From a virus, in the UHGV virus genome UHGV-1376076: a stretch of DNA of 36,108 nucleotides. One strand, given 5' to 3'. This document shows positions 1,326-26,032 of the stretch, one piece after another (the stretch's first letter is position 1; every line of letters begins with the position of its first letter). The notes under the pieces are model-generated. The model ran no database searches and was not told the DNA's origin. It worked only from the letters and a program-made list of their open reading frames with translations. A program made the position numbers and the translations under genes.

Positions 1326-1463
1326 ATGGATAAAGAAATCAAAGCAACTTTCAAATTAGATTTGACTGAACTAAAAGAACTGCTCAACAAGGCTAGTGAC
1401 CAAGTCGAACAGTTACAAGAAACTTTAGATGAAATTGCTAATTTTAAAATCCAAGTTTCTTAG
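1326..1463 (+). CDS. small coiled-coil hypothetical protein (45 aa)
   Basis: RBS GGAGG 8 nt before the ATG. The sequence is a charged heptad-like 'LKELLNKASDQVEQLQETLDEIANF'. Its 3' end overlaps the convergent gene at 1444..1758. Confidence 0.4.
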   Translation: MDKEIKATFKLDLTELKELLNKASDQVEQLQETLDEIANFKIQVS

Positions 1464-1758
1464 CAGTATATTTTTTAGCAGCTGCACTCATGAAATCAGA
1501 CCAAGTATCAAAATTTGTATTATCAGATACGAATGCATCCATTTGATCATCAGGAATCGCGGCAAACGATTCTTCAGAGCTGCAGTCAAATCCGCTAACC
1601 TCAAAGAATTCCTCAATGGAGTTAAATTTGGTATTAGCTGAAACAAAATCATTTGTAAATAACTCGGACATTGGAACGCTATGTTCACCGTCCATTTCTT
1701 GGGCAGCTTTTGCCATTTTGTTAAGTTTTTTACTTAAATTATCAAACCCGTTACTCAT
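1444..1758 (-). CDS. hypothetical acidic protein (104 aa), leftward moron
   Basis: GGTGG RBS before the ATG on the minus strand. The ORF is clean and coding-like. It is convergent with the 45-aa ORF, and its 3' UTR would be antisense to that ORF. Confidence 0.55.
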   Translation of the reverse strand: MSNGFDNLSKKLNKMAKAAQEMDGEHSVPMSELFTNDFVSANTKFNSIEEFFEVSGFDCSSEESFAAIPDDQMDAFVSDNTNFDTWSDFMSAAAKKYTAKKLGF

Positions 1759-1834: not shown

Positions 1835-2026
1835 ATGAACACGGAAAGAATTGTTTTAGAAGCAGAAGAAAAAGAATTTATTGAAACGGTTATTAGTTTT
1901 GTAATTGAGAAAGGCTGGACGATTTCTAATTTGCAAAATGCTGTATCAAAAGCGGAAGATTATATGAAAAAAAATGCCACATTAACAGAGCTGACAATTG
2001 GTATGCCAGCTCAAATTAAAGATTAA
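1835..2026 (+). CDS. hypothetical protein (63 aa)
   Basis: RBS AAAGGAA before the ATG. It is convergent with 2023..2263 and overlaps it by 4 nt. Confidence 0.45.
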   Translation: MNTERIVLEAEEKEFIETVISFVIEKGWTISNLQNAVSKAEDYMKKNATLTELTIGMPAQIKD

Positions 2027-2263
2027 TAGAATCTATATTTGTATTGCCCACCACCACGAACAATCAAATACCATCTACCAGGACCACTGACTGTGATATT
2101 TACCGGTGTTCTAGTGCAATGTCCGCCGTAGTACTTAAATTTTTGACCAGAGTTCATTTTTCTGTAGTTCGTAGAATCGACCAAAAATACATCTGCGGTA
2201 TGTTGAAGTTCTACTCTTACAGATAATGAACCGCTGGATTCAGCATAAGGAACCTGCACCATG
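2023..2263 (-). CDS. conserved small hypothetical protein (79 aa, Gly/Tyr-rich C-terminus)
   Basis: Perfect RBS AAGGAGGTG 6 nt upstream of ATG 2263 on the minus strand. The first M in the ORF track lies inside the RBS and is really GTG. Confidence 0.55.
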
Positions 2264-2404
2264 TTTTTCACCTCCTTATCGGCTATTTCAGCGGACCACT
2301 CGCTGATAACTAAAATTATACACTTAGGTCATTGGAAAAAGCTGATAGTGAATTTGCAGAAAAATACAATTTAACTAAATAATTAAAAAGGTGGGTGAAG
2401 AGAA

Positions 2405-2488
2405 ATGATGGCGTTAATAATTTCAATTTTTGCGCTCTGTCTTAATGTCTATATGATTGGATTTAAAAATGGGCAAAATAAAAAATAG
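2405..2488 (+). CDS. 27-aa hydrophobic peptide with one TM helix and a basic tail; possible type-I-toxin-like peptide
   Basis: Sequence MMALIISIFALCLNVYMIGFKNGQNKK, with RBS AAAAGGTGGG upstream. This architecture resembles Fst/TxpA-type toxins. It lies immediately upstream of the GC-rich structured region. Confidence 0.3.
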   Translation: MMALIISIFALCLNVYMIGFKNGQNKK

Positions 2489-2504
2489 TAGCAGCCAAGA
2501 ATAA

Positions 2505-2735
2505 TTTTATAGTGTCACTGTGGCGGAAGTAGAAGACGCAACGGTAAATGGCGAGTAGCCTCGTGAGAGCCTAGTAAGTTCTCGTGTGTGGTGCGATTCC
2601 ACTCCAGTGACTTTAGCAACTGAGGGGGGTATGAACTCGTGTGGTGCGAGCCCTAGGGAGGAACAGGATAACCGCCTGTGTGTAGGTTGCTATTACATAT
2701 TAGATCACTCTTTGAGTGGTCTTTTTATTTTGAAA
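2505..2735 (+). ncRNA. candidate structured non-coding RNA (GC-rich island ending in an intrinsic terminator)
   Basis: By my count the stretch is about 55% GC, against roughly 36-38% in the flanks. The motif CTCGTG(T)GTGGTGCGA recurs at 2581-2597 and 2636-2650. Complementary segments are present: gtcactg 2514-2520 with cagtgac 2605-2611, and ggcgg 2522-2526 with ccgcc 2672-2676. Read in the frame of the downstream gene (start of ORF 2586..3134), the stretch is Trp/Cys-rich nonsense. It ends in the terminator at 2703-2733. Confidence 0.3.
2703..2733 (+). terminator. rho-independent terminator
   Basis: Hairpin gatcactc-ttt-gagtggtc followed by TTTTTATTTT. It is oriented for the plus strand only. 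Confidence 0.6.
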
Positions 2736-2748
2736 GGAGTTTTATCTA

Positions 2749-3134
2749 TGAATGATTTTCATGAAGCAGTACTTAGCATCGAGGTAGAACCAAGTCTGGC
2801 CACTGCATATAAAAAAGCGATTGAAGATGACAACAGTAGACATTGGATTAAAAATGAAATAAAAAATGCCGATGAAAATATTGTGATTAGCGATATCAAG
2901 CCAAGCTGGAATGGCAACCACTGTAGTGTCAGTATTGATAATAGCTTGACTATTGAAAAATATTCCGGAGCAATAATTGATAGAACAGAACGCAAAACTC
3001 ACCTAACCATAGCATTGATTTCTAGGACCTTACCGAATTTAAAAGAACAGGTTGAATGGTATGAGCGGATGGGCGCAAAAGTAATCAGTACAAATTACAA
3101 AGGAGAGAATCAAAATGGCAATGATCAAAATTAG
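2749..3134 (+). CDS. hypothetical protein (128 aa)
   Basis: RBS GAAAGGAG 8 nt before the ATG, directly after the terminator. I reject the upstream in-frame extension of ORF 2586..3134 as non-coding. Confidence 0.6.
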
Positions 3135-3516
3135 AACAACCATCACAGGAACAGAGTATTGGGATTCAGAAAAGAAAAAGACTGTTGTAGTTCCGAAAGG
3201 TCAAGAACCTAAATTTGATATAAGTGAACAGACTGATATGACTGTAGTTGCCAAGACAATTGTTGGTGATGACGTCTTGTTTAAGAGTGGTGAAGAAATT
3301 CATTTATCAGGAGAAGAATTAGATAGCGATGGAAACTCCGCTGCTGACTTTGATGGAGAAAAACTTACCGATGATCAGTCCGATGGAGACACAGATGAGT
3401 TAGAAGATATGACTGCAAAAGAATTACGTGCATATGCTAAGAAACATGGCATTGATATTCCTGGTGCTGTCCGTGCAAAAGGAGACATCATCCATCTTAT
3501 TCGTGAAGCAGAATGA
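3115..3516 (+). CDS. phage protein with a C-terminal Rho-N/SAP-like DNA-binding motif and an acidic linker
   Basis: RBS AAAGGAGAG. The C-terminus 'AKELRAYAKKHGIDIPGAVRAKGDIIHLI' resembles a Rho N-terminal / HeH motif. The middle is a D/E-rich low-complexity segment. Confidence 0.55.
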   Translation: MAMIKIRTTITGTEYWDSEKKKTVVVPKGQEPKFDISEQTDMTVVAKTIVGDDVLFKSGEEIHLSGEELDSDGNSAADFDGEKLTDDQSDGDTDELEDMTAKELRAYAKKHGIDIPGAVRAKGDIIHLIREAE

Positions 3517-3893
3517 AGTACTGTCAGTTTGACGGATGCACGAACAAGATAGCAAAGGGTATCTACTGTACTGAACACAAGAGATCAAGCAGATCACGCA
3601 AGAAGAAGCAGCAAGCAAAGTCTGTTTATCATCATGAGAACAAACCATTCTATCGAACGCAAGCATGGAAAGATATGCGCCAATTTATTTACGAAAGAGA
3701 AGGTGGCCACTGTCAGCGATGTGGTCAGTTCATCTTTGGAAAGAGGGCACACGTCCATCACATCGTGCCAATCAAAGACAATGAATTGCTTAAGCTTGAT
3801 CAAAACAATCTCATGCTTTTATGTTCAAAATGTCATCCAATTGTTGAAAACGAAACAGAAGACAAAAAAGTTTTTCCTTCGTATTTTAATTAA
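3513..3893 (+). CDS. HNH endonuclease (packaging-associated)
   Basis: Cys/His motifs 'CQRCG...HVHHIVP...CSKCH' match the HNH fold. Its position immediately upstream of the terminase small subunit is typical of cos-type siphoviruses. Confidence 0.85.
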   Translation: MKYCQFDGCTNKIAKGIYCTEHKRSSRSRKKKQQAKSVYHHENKPFYRTQAWKDMRQFIYEREGGHCQRCGQFIFGKRAHVHHIVPIKDNELLKLDQNNLMLLCSKCHPIVENETEDKKVFPSYFN

Positions 3894-3990: not shown

Positions 3991-4003
3991 GGTGTATACA
4001 AGT

Positions 4004-4456
4004 ATGACGACTAAAGCGCAACGTAAAGCGATTGTTGATGAAAAAGTAAGTGCTGAAAAAGCTCGTATTTTAAAAATAATGAATTTGTCTGATTTGTACA
4101 CCATCACTCTTGATCCATTAATCGAATCATATTTGGATATTTTTGAAATTTACCAACACAAATATCTTTTGTGGAAGGAAAAAGGCTTTCCGGAGACGCA
4201 AAAATTCACGAATAAATCAGGTGCCACTAATCAATCGAAGCATCCATTGGCGCAGCAAGTAGAAACTTGGGCAGATAAAAAAATGAAAGCTCTAGATTTG
4301 TTGGGGCTAACGAATAAGGCTAAAACTGGTAGACAAATAACTGGCGGATCGACTGCAAGAAAAGATGAAGAAATTACACGTCCAGAAGAAAAGCCAGTAG
4401 ATGAACTAGCAGCGCACAGAAACAAATGGCGTAAGAAGGCAGGTACTGAAAAATGA
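4004..4456 (+). CDS. terS: terminase small subunit (P27-like)
   Basis: Its position, about 150 aa size and N-terminal DNA-binding-like region fit terS. The stop overlaps the terL start in an ATGA junction. A GTG at 3992 is an alternative start. Confidence 0.75.
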   Translation: MTTKAQRKAIVDEKVSAEKARILKIMNLSDLYTITLDPLIESYLDIFEIYQHKYLLWKEKGFPETQKFTNKSGATNQSKHPLAQQVETWADKKMKALDLLGLTNKAKTGRQITGGSTARKDEEITRPEEKPVDELAAHRNKWRKKAGTEK

Positions 4457-6180
4457 TCGAACCTGGTGTAAATTATGCCGATTTATTTGCAAAAGAAGTA
4501 AGAAAGAAACCTGGGAAATATCCTAAAACTGTTCGTTTGGCAGTGGATCGTTTGTATCGGTGGAAAAAACGTAAAGATATTTGGTTTGATGTAGATCGTG
4601 CGAATGAAATGATGGACTGGGTTGAGTCGTTTATTGTTCACACAAAAGGTGAGATGGTTGGAAAGCCATTCATTTTAGAACCTTGGGAAAAATTTATTTA
4701 CTCGTGGATGTATGGATGGGTTAAAGAAAATGAAAAAGGGCAAATTGTCCGTGTTACTCGTGAAGCGTATGTCCAAATCCCTAAAAAGAACGGTAAAACA
4801 TTGATCGCTGTCGGTTCATTAGGCTATGCAATGTATGGAGAAGGTGCTTTGTCAGTCGATTGTTATGCGTGCGCTTCTGACTTTGCTCAAGCTCAATATG
4901 CTGCCAAACCTTTTGCAACTACAATCTTAAATAATCCAATTCTACTTGAAGGAACTAAAATATTTAAAGGACCAAAGGGGACTGTTTCTAGTATTACTTA
5001 TGATTATATTCATGAAGATATGGCTTATTCGAATAAATTTATTGTTCAAACGAAGAATATTGATAATATCGAGGGATCCAATCCATATTTTGTGTTGAAT
5101 GATGAATTGCATAAGCAAGAGAAAATGGAACAGTATGACAATTTTAAGTCTGCTCAAATATCTTTACCACAGCCATTGATGTTTAATATCTCAACTGCTG
5201 GGAAAGGTTCATCGTCTGTTGGAATGCGCGTATATCGCGAAGCAAAAGAAGTGTTGAAACGCGATGATAATGATTCAAACTTTGTTCTAATCTATGAGCC
5301 AAATAAAAATTATGATTGGACGGATAGAAAAGTCTGGGAAATGTGCAATCCTAACTGGGGAATATCAGTCGATCTTTCCGCTTTAGAGTCCGCATTTAAA
5401 ACAGCACAACGGTCAGCCCATTCAAAAGCCGAATTTCTAACGAAGCACTTGGATGTATTTGTAAACGGCGCGGATAATTTCTTTGAACGGGATCAAGTAG
5501 AGCCATGTTTAGTTACCACACAAGAACTTGGTGATTTAAGTGGCGAACCATGTTATATCGGTTTAGATTTATCACGTACACGAGATTTGACCTGTGTATC
5601 TTTAAACTTCCCAACATGGGATGAAGATGGTAAAGCGGTTCTTAAAGTAAAGCAACTCTATTTTATTCCAAATGAAAATTTAGAGTTTCGAGAAAAAGAA
5701 GATAACGTGCCTTACAGCGATTTGGCTGAACAAGGTTTCGTTGAATTTTGCGACGGAAAGATGATTGATCAAGATCAGATTCTGCAGTACATAGAGGACT
5801 GCATGGATTTATATGATATTCAGCAAGTGAATTATGATCCAGCAATGAGTGATAAACTTGTTGAGAAATTAGAGAACTTAGGATTGGAATGCGTTGAGGT
5901 TGACCAATATCCTAAAGTATTGAACGCTCCTTTTGACGATGTCGAACGGTTGTTTTATGAGCAACGAATTCAATTTGATAATCCATTATTCCTGTATTGC
6001 ACATTGAATGTTGTAGCAATTACTAACATCAATGGACAAAAAGCGCCAAGTAAACGCCAATCAAAGAAAAAGATTGATGGTTTCGTGGCGTTTTTGTGTG
6101 GTCATAAGGAAACGATGAATCAGATGACAGATATTGATTCGGATGAATTAGATGATTACCTTAGTTCCATCTATAGATAA
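4453..6180 (+). CDS. terL: terminase large subunit
   Basis: 575 aa. There is an ATPase region with a 'VQIPKKNGKT' P-loop-like motif, and a C-terminal nuclease domain. It sits in the canonical position. Confidence 0.92.
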   Translation: MIEPGVNYADLFAKEVRKKPGKYPKTVRLAVDRLYRWKKRKDIWFDVDRANEMMDWVESFIVHTKGEMVGKPFILEPWEKFIYSWMYGWVKENEKGQIVRVTREAYVQIPKKNGKTLIAVGSLGYAMYGEGALSVDCYACASDFAQAQYAAKPFATTILNNPILLEGTKIFKGPKGTVSSITYDYIHEDMAYSNKFIVQTKNIDNIEGSNPYFVLNDELHKQEKMEQYDNFKSAQISLPQPLMFNISTAGKGSSSVGMRVYREAKEVLKRDDNDSNFVLIYEPNKNYDWTDRKVWEMCNPNWGISVDLSALESAFKTAQRSAHSKAEFLTKHLDVFVNGADNFFERDQVEPCLVTTQELGDLSGEPCYIGLDLSRTRDLTCVSLNFPTWDEDGKAVLKVKQLYFIPNENLEFREKEDNVPYSDLAEQGFVEFCDGKMIDQDQILQYIEDCMDLYDIQQVNYDPAMSDKLVEKLENLGLECVEVDQYPKVLNAPFDDVERLFYEQRIQFDNPLFLYCTLNVVAITNINGQKAPSKRQSKKKIDGFVAFLCGHKETMNQMTDIDSDELDDYLSSIYR

Positions 6181-22975: not shown

Positions 22976-23127
22976 TTCTTCTATTAGTTTTTCTAACTCT
23001 TGTAAATCTTCAGCGGTAGCCTGTTTCCGAATAAATGATCGAGCAGTGCTGCGATTCCGTAAATAACGAGCATGTTCACGATTTTTTTCTTGCCATTTTT
23101 TGTTTGCAGTAGTTGTGATGGCTTTCC
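22958..23127 (-). pseudogene. C-terminal gene fragment with no start codon
   Basis: The minus-strand frame reads ...AKYGKPSQLLQTKKWQEKNREHARYLRNRSTARSFIRKQATAEDLQELEKLIEERKKDLVRD*. It ends inside the bidirectional terminator. Upstream there is an in-frame stop and no ATG/GTG/TTG start. It abuts the pseudo-tRNA. Confidence 0.35.
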
Positions 23128-23200
23128 GTACTTAGCTCAGTTGGTCAGAGCAAACGGCTCATAACCGTCCGGTCGTAGGTTCGAGTCCTAAAGGGTACAT
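23128..23200 (+). pseudogene. degenerate tRNA(CAT)-like sequence (pseudo-tRNA)
   Basis: It aligns over about 70 nt to the intact tRNA at 24355-24428. It has a 3-nt deletion in the acceptor stem and 4 substitutions, including one that breaks the T-stem. Confidence 0.5.
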
Positions 23201-24354: not shown

Positions 24355-24428
24355 GTACCCTTAGCTCAGTTGGTTAGAGCAGACGGCTCATAACCGTCCG
24401 GTCGTAGGTTCGATTCCTACAGGGTACA
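24355..24428 (+). tRNA. tRNA with anticodon CAT (elongator Met or Ile2-lysidine type)
   Basis: Cloverleaf: acceptor gtaccct/agggtac, D-arm gctc-agttggtta-gagc, anticodon stem gacgg/ccgtc with loop ctCATaa, T-arm gtagg-ttcgatt-cctac, discriminator A. No CCA is encoded. Confidence 0.8.
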
Positions 24429-24691: not shown

Positions 24692-25897
24692 TTAGCCTAA
24701 AATGTTTTTTGACTCCCCTTTTGACTCCCCCTGAGTACTGTTCTTCATAAATGCTACAAAATTATTGATGACTTTTTTGTTTTGAGTTTCAGTTACGTGA
24801 GTGTAAATATTTGAAGTAGTTTGAATGTCTGCATGCCCTAAACGTTCCTGAACATCTTTTAAAGAAGCTCCTGATTCAAAAAGGAGAGAGGCATGAGTAT
24901 GTCGAAAACCATGAGTAGTGATTCTTTTAGTCAATTCTGGATGATGCTTATATATGACATTAAGCCACGAACGTGAAACTGTAGGGTTATAGAGAAGACC
25001 ATCATGGTGAAAAATTAAGTTTTCGCTTTGGATTGTAACGATCGTTTTGTTTTTTGTATAATACTTTCTCAATAAACTGATCAAATCATTGTCCAGATAA
25101 ATTTTTCTTTTTCCAGATTTTGATTTAGGAGTATTTACGATCAATCTCCCTTGATAACCTCTTGTTACAGTTTTATTAATATTGAGTGTTTTGCTCTTAA
25201 AATCAATATCCGACCAGGTCAGTGCAAAAGCTTCTCCTTTTCTTATACCTGTAAAAGCCAATAGGGAAAAGAATAAATATCTTTCATCATCATCGTTTCT
25301 TATTGCTTCTAAAAATTCGATTAATTCTTCTTTAGTATAAAATTCGATATTTTTATCTTCGATATCTAGAGCTTCTCCACGTGGAATAGAAACTAATTTC
25401 ATAGGATTACTAGTTATAATTTGTAAAGAAGCAGCGTAATCAAAAACATTAGATGTGTAATTTTTTATTTTCTTAAAAATTTTAGGATGGCTATCGGACC
25501 AAGTGTTTACTGCTTCTTGACAGAAAAAAACGTCTATTTTGTCAATGAACTTATCTCCAAACACTTTTAAGATGTGTGTGTCAAAAATTTGTTTGGTGGA
25601 GGACCAAGTGCTTTCTTTAACTGTCTTTTTATAATTTTCAAACCATAAGCCGTAAACATATTCGAATTTCTTGCTCTTTTGAGCTGTAGAAGCTTGCAGT
25701 CCTTTTTCTTGTATATCTGCCTCCAATCTTTTTAAAGCTCTCTCAGCGGCTAATGGGGTACTAAAACCTCGTCTTGTCGTTTTTCTTTTTTTTCCTGTTA
25801 GCGGATCAACTCCTAAGTACAGACTAAACTGATATTTTTCTTCGCCTTTTTTTGTTAAATACTTTTTAATTCGTTTATCAATTTCTTTTTTTGCCAT
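24692..25897 (-). CDS. int: tyrosine site-specific integrase
   Basis: Catalytic residues in 'RHTHASLL...GHADIQTTSNIYTHV' (R, H-x-x-R, Y). RBS AAAGGAAAG before ATG 25897. The ORF is open further upstream to 26005, but that extension has no RBS. The 3' end contains the 22-bp repeat. Confidence 0.9.
   Translation of the reverse strand: MAKKEIDKRIKKYLTKKGEEKYQFSLYLGVDPLTGKKRKTTRRGFSTPLAAERALKRLEADIQEKGLQASTAQKSKKFEYVYGLWFENYKKTVKESTWSSTKQIFDTHILKVFGDKFIDKIDVFFCQEAVNTWSDSHPKIFKKIKNYTSNVFDYAASLQIITSNPMKLVSIPRGEALDIEDKNIEFYTKEELIEFLEAIRNDDDERYLFFSLLAFTGIRKGEAFALTWSDIDFKSKTLNINKTVTRGYQGRLIVNTPKSKSGKRKIYLDNDLISLLRKYYTKNKTIVTIQSENLIFHHDGLLYNPTVSRSWLNVIYKHHPELTKRITTHGFRHTHASLLFESGASLKDVQERLGHADIQTTSNIYTHVTETQNKKVINNFVAFMKNSTQGESKGESKNILG
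24710..24731. repeat. 22-bp direct repeat copy 2 (inside the integrase 3' end)
   Basis: Identical to 24467-24488. It encodes the GESKGES portion of the integrase C-terminus. Confidence 0.5.
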
Positions 25898-26032
25898 CTT
25901 TATCTTTCCTTTCGTACGTTTGTTCGGTTGTACAGCGGATTTCGAGATGGTAAAATAGGGTACAACAAATAGACCTACTTTACCGTAGTTCTTGGACTTA
26001 AACACGCTCGCTTTGGTCGGTGGGGCGTGTTT

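Follow-up and report, generated by a model that had tools for sequence, protein, structure and literature searches.

The stretch of DNA analyzed here (the window) comprises 36,108 nucleotides (nt) of the virus genome UHGV-1376076, which represents an Enterococcus-type temperate phage. At positions 2505–2735, between its late regulator and terminase genes, lies a block for which a single structured RNA, unrelated to transfer RNA (tRNA) and capped by a terminator, had been proposed from the sequence alone. We find at this site a conserved structured RNA locus on the plus strand, composed of two modules and a terminator; the 5' module is not unrelated to tRNA, having an acceptor stem, D-arm and T-arm of the tRNA(Leu) type. 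The parts of this cassette are as follows.

2514–2611, plus strand: tRNA-like RNA, type T1, 98 nt, defined by covariance model R1 and by folding
2514–2520 with 2605–2611, plus strand: acceptor stem, GUCACUG/CAGUGAC, 7 of 7 pairs
2523–2539, plus strand: D-arm, GCGG-AAGUAGAAGA-CGC, tRNA(Leu) type
2541–2564, plus strand: insert arm 1, ACGG..[GGC-GAGUA-GCC]..UCGU
2565–2583, plus strand: insert arm 2, GAGAGC-CUAGUAA-GUUCUC, with a stem of 6 base pairs (bp) and a 7-nt loop
2586–2604, plus strand: T-arm, GUGUGG-UGCGAUU-CCACUC, with a 6-bp stem and the loop UGCGAUU
2612–2614, plus strand: U at the discriminator position and UU trailer, read from the sequence; no CCA is encoded
2615–2691, plus strand: second RNA module, carrying insert variant A as its exchangeable interior between constant ends
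2692–2701, plus strand: conserved cassette junction, ATTACATATT
2702–2732, plus strand: intrinsic terminator, with a 9-bp stem (2702–2722), UUU loop and T-run UUUUUAUUUU

The tRNA-like element has the layout GUCACUG-UG-GCGG..CGC ... GUGG-UGCGAUU-CCAC-UC-CAGUGAC. Among the complementary segments remarked on at the outset, GTCACTG (2514–2520) and CAGTGAC (2605–2611) form its acceptor stem, whereas ggcgg/ccgcc and the palindromic ccctaggg, also present in the sequence, are not partners in any supported structure. The cloverleaf-type fold of the element (−31.3 kcal/mol) lies 2.3 kcal/mol above the minimum free energy (MFE) structure (−33.6 kcal/mol), and the 98 nt taken alone yield a folding z of −2.61; the entire block, folded on the plus strand, is no better than shuffles (z = −0.70). 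The G+C content of the block is 47.2%, not the approximately 55% originally given for it, and rises to 52.1% over 2514–2701 and 54.1% over 2514–2611, against 35.8–35.9% in the flanks and 36.4% in the whole window. The core at 2514–2701 is nevertheless the G+C maximum: it is the richest 188-nt stretch of the window, and 0.04% of such stretches reach its value. A TTT following the element, as at 2612–2614, also occurs in most related loci, and we regard this position as a putative cleavage site for ribonuclease (RNase) Z.

Insert arm 2, with its 6-bp stem and 7-nt C-U-NNN-A-A loop, has the shape of the anticodon-loop consensus, and the program ARAGORN forces anticodons onto a few members of the wider family described below. 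The element might on these grounds be a functional, non-canonical tRNA of class-II-like form with an extra arm, reading codons through the CUAGUAA loop (anticodon AGU or GGU), a proposal to which we give very little credence. In close relatives this loop reads CUAGUAA, CUGGUAA, UUAGUAA, CUAGGAA or CUGGCAA; since the central triplet (AGU, GGU, AGG or GGC) thus differs among near-identical sequences, the loop is not an anticodon. The arm moreover stands where a variable arm would, and no variable loop follows; the acceptor and T stems stack as 7/6, and the D-arm is followed by an irregular 24-nt hairpin where a tRNA would have an anticodon arm of 5 bp and 7 nt. Models of tRNA reject the element, and other family members have loops of only 3–5 nt at the anticodon-arm position. 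As predicted from this anatomy, the tRNA-like element is not a decoding tRNA and cannot decode.

Comparison of 17 distinct T1 variants showed 94.5% of stem cells to be paired, as against 33–45% in slid controls. Every substitution in insert arm 2 preserves pairing, as do all but one in the outer stem of arm 1, and because many of these pair-preserving changes pass through G-U, the strand of the RNA is fixed as plus. A sister type, T2, has both ends in common with T1; the cloverleaf-like shape is its single-sequence MFE structure, and RNAalifold recovers that shape from the T2 sequences with three compensatory pairs.

In pattern scans of IMG/VR, the 3' module was retrieved in 57 loci, the window-type T-arm in 70 and the window-type insert in 52. 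The Enterococcus phage EH-TP1 contains a homologous, unannotated gap of ~830 nt that holds an element GTCGCTGTGGCGGAAAGGGTAGACGC...CAAGGTTCGATTCCTTGCCAGCGAC, a genuine tRNA-Lys(UUU), and the 3' sequence and terminator of the window; the ends of its element form a tRNA(Leu)-type acceptor stem, D-arm and T-arm, and 2514–2611 has the same ends. Across the related loci the acceptor stem of this common chassis is GTCACTG/CAGTGAC or a compensated form such as GTCGCTG/CAGCGAC and ATCGCTG/CAGCGAT, and the one Enterococcus chassis carries at least seven unrelated centers (T1–T6 and a 222-nt type), in elements of 88–222 nt. The T1 insert occurs with this chassis only (52 loci; other chassis were searched). 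Two tRNA-like elements stand in tandem in 24 loci, and elsewhere real tRNA-Lys(UUU) genes or other structured modules fill the same slot; all of these cassettes lie 5' of the same terminator and late genes. The RNA locus is therefore conserved across related phages, modular, non-coding and terminator-capped, and its differing content agrees with the variable hotspot that had been suspected between the late regulator and the terminase genes.

The tRNA-Lys(UUU) genes merit a separate observation. That of EH-TP1 is canonical, while those in the cassette slot of loci L005 (597–670), L006, L019, L028 and L043 have an aberrant D-arm, AGTATCTGTGGTGATAC. As tRNA-Lys(UUU) is a target of anticodon nucleases, the aberrant genes may be nuclease-evading variants. 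Further conserved leader modules of ~130–200 nt were also encountered: M_A (CTGGTGCATAGCAACTGCTGACAGGAAAGTTG...CTGATGCACCTGTCA; L014, L015, L020 and others) and M_B (GCGCAGACGTGCGCCACTCTCAGGTGTAGGTTAGGAGAG...; L023, L031, L037 and others), both with long-range complementary segments and no match in Rfam. Small hairpin modules and a module of ~120 nt occur in addition between module 2 and the terminator.

Module 2 is closed by a 7-bp stem, AGCAACU/GGUUGCU (2615–2621 with 2685–2691), within which constant junctions GAGG...GUGUA flank an interior hairpin, CUCGU-GUGGU-GCGAG; the variable nucleotide of a G-run falls on a predicted bulge. Between its constant ends, AGCAACCGAGG and GTGTAGGTTGCT, related loci have at least six interiors (A–F) that are unrelated to one another, and the closing stem undergoes a compensatory change from C-G to U-A in EH-TP1, with U-G intermediates. 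In the related loci the 3' end GTGTAGGTTGCT is joined to the junction ATTACATA, and the junction ATTACATATT is followed either by the terminator or by an additional inserted module, itself ending ...(T)TACATATT. Readings of module 2 as a 3'-processing ribozyme beside a tRNA (HDV-like, hatchet, hammerhead) were rejected, given a long-range stem that joins both ends and the lack of any such match in Rfam. Searches for distant members of module 2 were unproductive: the pattern CGAGG-N35-65-CTGTGTGTAG was too loose in viral contigs, where a closing-stem filter left no new distant member, and CCGAGG-N33-63-GTGTAGGTTGC gave, in genome contigs, random matches in unrelated metagenome-assembled genomes, none with the 5' end of the module. 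The start of module 2, AGCAACCGA, resembles a tRNA-like module of Lacticaseibacillus phage R29.1 (9-nt identity), a likeness that serves as a lead only, an 8-mer being common by chance.

The two modules have in common a T-arm-like segment, the 11-nt GTGTGGTGCGA, present in exactly two copies (2586–2596 and 2639–2649, spaced 53 nt) and capable of mediating recombination between them. These copies account for the repeated CTCGTG motif first noticed in the block. The repeat by itself is not significant against shuffles: a longer form of the motif, CTCGTGTGGTGCGA, has three matches at up to three mismatches, which 12 of 100 shuffles equal. A ToxI-like repeat array was rejected, in agreement with the original assessment of type III systems, as there is a single two-copy repeat of T-arm-like segments and no tandem array. 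In locus L044 a deletion (1048 region) fuses the start of a T2 T-arm to the CTCGTGTGGTGCGAG hairpin of module 2 via GTGTGGTGCGA; in L050 and L058 duplicated copies are joined by an N at the same repeat, and these are probably assembly artifacts.

To delineate the wider family we scanned viral contigs with the D-arm motif GTGGCGGAA-N4-12-GACGC. The scan returned true tRNA(Leu) genes, random coding matches, and dozens of elements not callable as tRNA in which a 7-bp acceptor stem and a T-arm are rightly placed around centers of 24–170 nt that are unlike one another, an arrangement with an estimated chance of ~5e-5 per match. Over diverse viral contigs, 61 unique elements were not callable as tRNA and 26 were genuine tRNAs, mostly Leu. 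Many of the non-callable members bear a hairpin with a 3–5-nt loop at the anticodon-arm position (such as CUUA-nnnn-UAAG) and, after it, a long variable arm, and one subfamily resembles the window element in its 7/6 acceptor/T stack and in G at T-loop position 55 (UGCAAAU, UGCGAUU). Among 11 non-Enterococcus members, for which acceptor and T-stem pairing was itself the selection criterion, 98.9% of stem cells pair and compensatory change is seen at 10 of 16 pairs, a result reached by none of 500 shuffles. The covariance model built from these 11 members (R1) has a single match in the 36 kilobases (kb) of the window, at 2514–2611 on the plus strand (48.7 bits, E = 1.7e-12), extending over the full length of the model (positions 1–110); the two tRNA-Met genes of the window are not matched.

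A tRNA-like chassis in which a non-homologous structured insert replaces the anticodon and variable arms is thus present, and dozens of insert types are found beyond Enterococcus. The chassis recurs in unrelated contexts, 5' of recT-like, antirepressor and sigma-like genes as well as within tRNA clusters. One metagenomic phage locus of 4957 nt (L163; IMGVR_UViG_3300...) carries six non-callable tRNA-like elements among ordinary tRNAs, having an identical chassis, AGTCAGGTGGCGGAATGGTAGACGC...ACAGGTTCGAATCCTGTCCTGACT, and differing inserts of 30–115 nt; onto some of these ARAGORN forces odd anticodons. Members are found, unannotated, in phage isolates of Lactobacillus and Lacticaseibacillus including Lb338-1, JNU_P9 and R29.1, within noncoding stretches of ~0.8 kb in JNU_P9 and 1.1 kb in R29.1. 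In R29.1 (L462) the GC-rich, unannotated stretch at 2020–3100 includes a member at 2496–2592 (75 bits), at least two more T-arm-bearing modules, and a terminator right before the next gene; one module, at 2737–2816, starts with AGCAACCGA and aligns weakly to the tRNA-like domain of transfer-messenger RNA (tmRNA) in Rfam.

Two inserts occur in more than one member. L146 and L157, which have different chassis subtypes (7/6 with UGCAAAU versus 7/5 with UUCGAAU), have in common the motif GAURGUGGUCGGG-[hairpin with compensatory changes]-CGGAGGACGC...GGAAWGCA, and L072 and L094 have another, GGAACC-GUUAA-GGG...CCCGUUGUGG. These may be recurrent, aptamer-like insert classes. The recurrence of an insert class on different chassis subtypes suggests that the insert carries function.

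The original prediction had found no match to known RNA classes, a claim that stands for database models and fails for the 5' module, which is tRNA-derived. At gathering score, Rfam 15 gave only chance matches or canonical tRNAs across the whole window and 13 related loci, with no match to GOLLD, ROOL, HEARO, Y RNA-like or riboswitch models; the block itself is without a match, and a search of 2300–2900 at E-values up to 10 yielded nothing meaningful, including no tRNA or tmRNA. ARAGORN likewise found no tRNA or tmRNA in the block, calling in the window only two distant tRNA-Met genes. Against 50,697 phage records, BLAST of the block matched only the terminator and junction, in four records, and searches of the full-text literature turned up no account of elements of this kind. 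Rfam 15 has no entry for the family, and none of the matched GenBank phage records annotates it.

The neighboring features, with which several further questions are connected, are listed here.

367–852: ArpU/sigma-like regulator gene
1444–1758, minus strand: phrog_2211 gene, between the regulator and the RNA cassette
2023–2271, minus strand: DUF1883 (phrog_9211) gene, likewise between the regulator and the RNA cassette
2286–2327, plus strand: conserved upstream block TTTCAGCGGACCACTCGCTGATAACTAAAATTATACACTTAG, candidate promoter/operator
2405–2488, plus strand: mini open reading frame (ORF) of 27 amino acids, MMALIISIFALCLNVYMIGFKNGQNKK, with a strong ribosome-binding site (RBS), read from the sequence
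2748–3134, plus strand: first gene after the terminator, 128 amino acids, phrog_5859, start ATG 2748
3513–3893: HNH endonuclease gene
3992–4456: small terminase gene
4453–6180: large terminase gene

The block indeed lies between a gene for a hydrophobic mini-peptide (2405–2488) and the 128-residue gene (2748–3134), as first described. The two minus-strand genes are typical moron-like insertions, and the start of the DUF1883 gene, ~15 nt from the conserved upstream block, implies a divergent promoter region. At some distance, the window contains two copies of tRNA-Met(CAU), at 23127–23199 (lower-scoring, with a 2-nt deletion in the acceptor stem) and 24355–24428, 1.2 kb apart and followed by a 437-residue minus-strand ORF (24692–26005); the pair looks like a prophage end or att duplication at a tRNA-Met gene, then a second integrated element.

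Fold energy bears out the predicted plus-strand terminator at the end of the block: its stem, followed by TTTTTATTTT, has −10.8 kcal/mol and z = −3.84, and none of 200 shuffles folds as well. It is kept in nearly all related loci and also occurs in phages without RNA modules, such as vB_ElaS_B1578. The next start codon follows ~15 nt downstream, with an RBS within a few nucleotides and then ATG 2748. The junction of the terminator with GAAAGGAGTTTTATCTATGAATGA is kept while the RNA upstream and the protein downstream both change, and the context of the RBS and ATG 2748 is conserved whichever RNA variant lies upstream. The phrog_5859 profile (1–106) aligns to residues 1–118 of the 2748–3134 product (E = 2e-45), beginning at Met 2748. 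The block is accordingly not coding in the downstream frame, as had been held, and the true start of the downstream gene is, by this prediction, ATG 2748, not the upstream GTG 2586.

The conserved block at 2286–2327 contains an inverted repeat, CAGCG-N7-CGCTG (2289–2305), and a −10-like TAAAAT (2311–2316) with a poor −35. In phage EH-TP1 and many related prophage loci, the same block TTTCAGCGGACCACTCGCTGATAACTAAAATTATACACTTAG stands ~35–40 nt 5' of the tRNA-like element. A consensus promoter scan did not call it, calling instead a weaker site at 2342–2370; we take the block to be, probably, an activator-dependent (late) promoter or operator for the transcript of the RNA cassette.

Between this block and the tRNA-like element of the window sits the mini-ORF. 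Its peptide is hydrophobic and then basic (MIPLIIS... in relatives), and has no PHROG match; it was not among the Pfam queries. A (near-)identical peptide gene lies directly 5' of tRNA-like elements in ~45 related loci and is missing from others, and four different tRNA-like types are found behind the same mini-ORF, which identifies it as an optional cassette. The peptide could be a small membrane protein or a toxin-like moron. In a type I toxin-antitoxin-like pair with the peptide as membrane toxin, the block would supply either the structured 3' untranslated region of the toxin or an antisense antitoxin; the strong RBS, the hydrophobic-then-basic composition, the recurrent association with tRNA-like elements and a minus-strand fold of the block somewhat more stable than that of shuffled sequences (z = −2.53) would fit. 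This, too, we judge very improbable, because there is no minus-strand promoter-like or terminator-like site in 2490–2740, the wobble pairs work on the plus strand only, the peptide lacks a PHROG match, and the association is loose in both directions, many tRNA-like elements having no mini-ORF and one ORF serving four of their types.

The position of the terminator raises another explanation, in which the RNA would be a cis-acting leader of the late operon, the structure controlling read-through of the terminator into the packaging genes, by analogy with the lambda pR'-6S RNA-tR' arrangement or the put RNA of HK022. A terminator that requires read-through, standing directly before late genes as in antitermination or late-leader systems, is present: the ~15-nt gap to the late ORF leaves no room for a promoter, so that transcripts must cross the terminator. 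The upstream block resembles an activator-dependent promoter, a sigma-like or ArpU-like regulator is encoded at 367–852, and little variation is seen in the ATTACATA junction or in either end of module 2. The RNA content, however, is highly variable among phages with the same terminator and downstream genes, genuine tRNA-Lys genes occupy the same slot, and the chassis turns up elsewhere in unrelated contexts. Among the related loci and B1578, no cis RNA element is kept wherever the terminator is kept; since B1578 has the terminator and lacks any RNA cassette, the modules are not needed for whatever happens at the terminator. We therefore hold a cis-acting leader to be unlikely, and favor trans-acting RNAs on the grounds that the cassettes are exchangeable, that the terminator exists alone, that tRNAs fill the slot, and that the chassis is found elsewhere.

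Our preferred explanation, in which we place somewhat better than even confidence, is that 2514–2732 is a short non-coding segment of a plus-strand transcript that would provide a trans-acting, accessory tRNA mimic, processed in the manner of a tRNA. The cassette would be placed between the promoter-like block, from which it would be transcribed, and the terminator, at the head of the packaging/late genes. Module 1 would be a mimic derived from class-II tRNA(Leu), keeping the acceptor stem, the D-arm and a T-arm with intact T-loop, that is, the parts that make the L-shape and its elbow together with those expected to be recognized by RNase P, RNase Z and the CCA-adding enzyme. Two other hairpins would replace the anticodon arm, by virtue of which module 1 would be unable to decode; module 2 with the terminator hairpin would constitute a typical small-RNA 3' end. 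RNase P is predicted to cut module 1 at its 5' side and RNase Z to cut behind the discriminator U, releasing a stable tRNA-like RNA of ~98 nt and, as a second RNA, module 2 with the terminator. Both might act in trans as accessory ("moron") RNAs and not as cis-regulators, the tRNA chassis conferring processing and stability and the variable insert conferring specificity. The likeliest role would be that of a decoy or competitor directed at a host factor that binds tRNA, for instance a tRNA-targeting defense nuclease or a tRNA enzyme, or, in broader terms, that of an effector RNA on a tRNA scaffold, so that the locus may have a regulatory or anti-defense role of the kind first suggested for it. 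Phage-supplied tRNA is known to counteract one defense nuclease whose cut falls in the variable loop of a class-II tRNA (PMC13096335).

Several results weigh against this explanation. The terminator's distance of ~15 nt from the first late gene makes some link to late-gene read-through possible. Antisense targets of either insert within the 36-kb window are at longest 9–10 nt, equal to shuffles. The family was retrieved with the window's own D-arm motif, which makes the test with model R1 partly circular, and R1 also scores genuine phage tRNA(Leu) genes, at 28–52 bits; scores in this same range mark the chassis as tRNA(Leu)-like. Module 2 alone folds no better than shuffles (z = +0.35), the fold of its interior being a plausible one, and the commonest variant elsewhere (D) has a degraded closing stem. 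The 17 T1 variants are 95% identical, with covariation not above shuffled controls; an A4-C95 acceptor mismatch is found in five of them, including the commonest (18 loci), and copies with this mismatch look like recombinant halves. The copy in the window has a U-U mismatch in the 6-bp T-stem and a D-loop without the usual GG, and the T1 subtype may be partly degenerate. Its discriminator is U and not the A73 of tRNA(Leu), which makes leucylation doubtful.

Some of these same observations (the near identity of T1 variants without significant covariation, the acceptor mismatches of many copies reminiscent of recombinant halves, and the broken closing stem of variant D), along with the degraded D-arm of L463 and the deletion between both GTGTGGTGCGA repeats in L044, could indicate decaying tRNA pseudogenes or recombination debris with no role as RNA, accumulated in a tolerated junk or mosaic hotspot next to the genome end and conserved through recent common ancestry. 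We consider this improbable in view of the wider family: the anticodon-less chassis is kept across phages of Enterococcus and Lacticaseibacillus and uncultured phages of marine and freshwater type, with acceptor and T stems fully compensated, and the six copies of L163 combine one chassis with different inserts. Substitutions in the insert stems preserve pairs, and an insert class is common to different chassis subtypes.

An accessory tRNA mimic of this kind can be set beside several known systems. The nearest is class-II tRNA(Leu) itself (RF00005), with which the window element has in common the 7-bp acceptor, U8-G9, a 3-bp D-stem (GCGG..(A)CGC) with a G13-A mismatch, the U54/C56/A58 pattern of the T-loop, an extra arm between D-arm and T-arm, and a score under the scaffold-only model (48.7 bits) within the range of real phage tRNA(Leu). 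It differs in lacking a 5-bp/7-nt anticodon arm, in its 6-bp T-stem with one mismatch, and in having G55, a D-loop devoid of GG, and a discriminator U in place of A73. Non-decoding RNAs processed as tRNAs are represented by the tRNA-like domain of tmRNA, mascRNA, YrlA and the phage T4 small stable RNAs C and D; in these the acceptor/T-arm "top half" is retained without a working anticodon, and the T4 RNAs are encoded among phage tRNAs. The block matched neither tmRNA, the Y RNA-like family nor mascRNA, whether by sequence or by covariance model, and the window element differs from these RNAs in keeping a full tRNA(Leu)-type D-arm and in having a hypervariable, exchangeable center. The lambda pR'-6S RNA-tR' arrangement would be similar in providing a short terminated transcript between a late promoter and late genes; it differs in that the leader content here is exchangeable and can be missing, and no Q-like antiterminator was identified. 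GOLLD and ROOL are large structured RNAs found in prophages of Lactobacillales and others, often clustering with tRNAs (PMC5737381); they measure 580–800 nt, as compared with ~90–130 nt for the tRNA-derived modules here, which have no Rfam match. In the engineered "tRNA scaffold" an arbitrary structured RNA takes the place of the anticodon region, with correct processing and nuclease resistance (PMC3753655). That is a laboratory design, whereas the present chassis is natural and of class II, and a like benefit to it may be supposed.

This last comparison invites a broader proposal, which we advance tentatively and regard as clearly less probable than the accessory tRNA mimic itself: that a natural "tRNA scaffold" system may exist in phages of Lactobacillales and many uncultured phages, in which an anticodon-less class-II tRNA(Leu) chassis, excised by RNases P and Z, would carry exchangeable effector inserts, deployed as cassettes or arrays beside tRNA genes at the head of the late operon. 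If so, the effectors would be the inserts, acting for instance as aptamer-like decoys against host defenses, tRNA-directed or other, and an RNA-based class of accessory and anti-defense genes would have been missed entirely by current annotation.

Annotation of phage genomes is confined almost wholly to proteins and canonical tRNAs. The locus described here belongs to a recurrent, modular class of tRNA-derived non-coding RNAs missed by ARAGORN and Rfam, and its cassette sits in the kind of variable hotspot that houses accessory and counter-defense genes. Should the combination of chassis and insert operate as we envisage, it would add an RNA layer to the conflict between phage and host, beside the phage tRNAs that counter tRNA-cleaving defenses. 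It would further account for long, seemingly "empty" noncoding stretches 5' of late and packaging genes in Lactobacillales phages, and would constitute a natural counterpart of the engineered tRNA scaffold.

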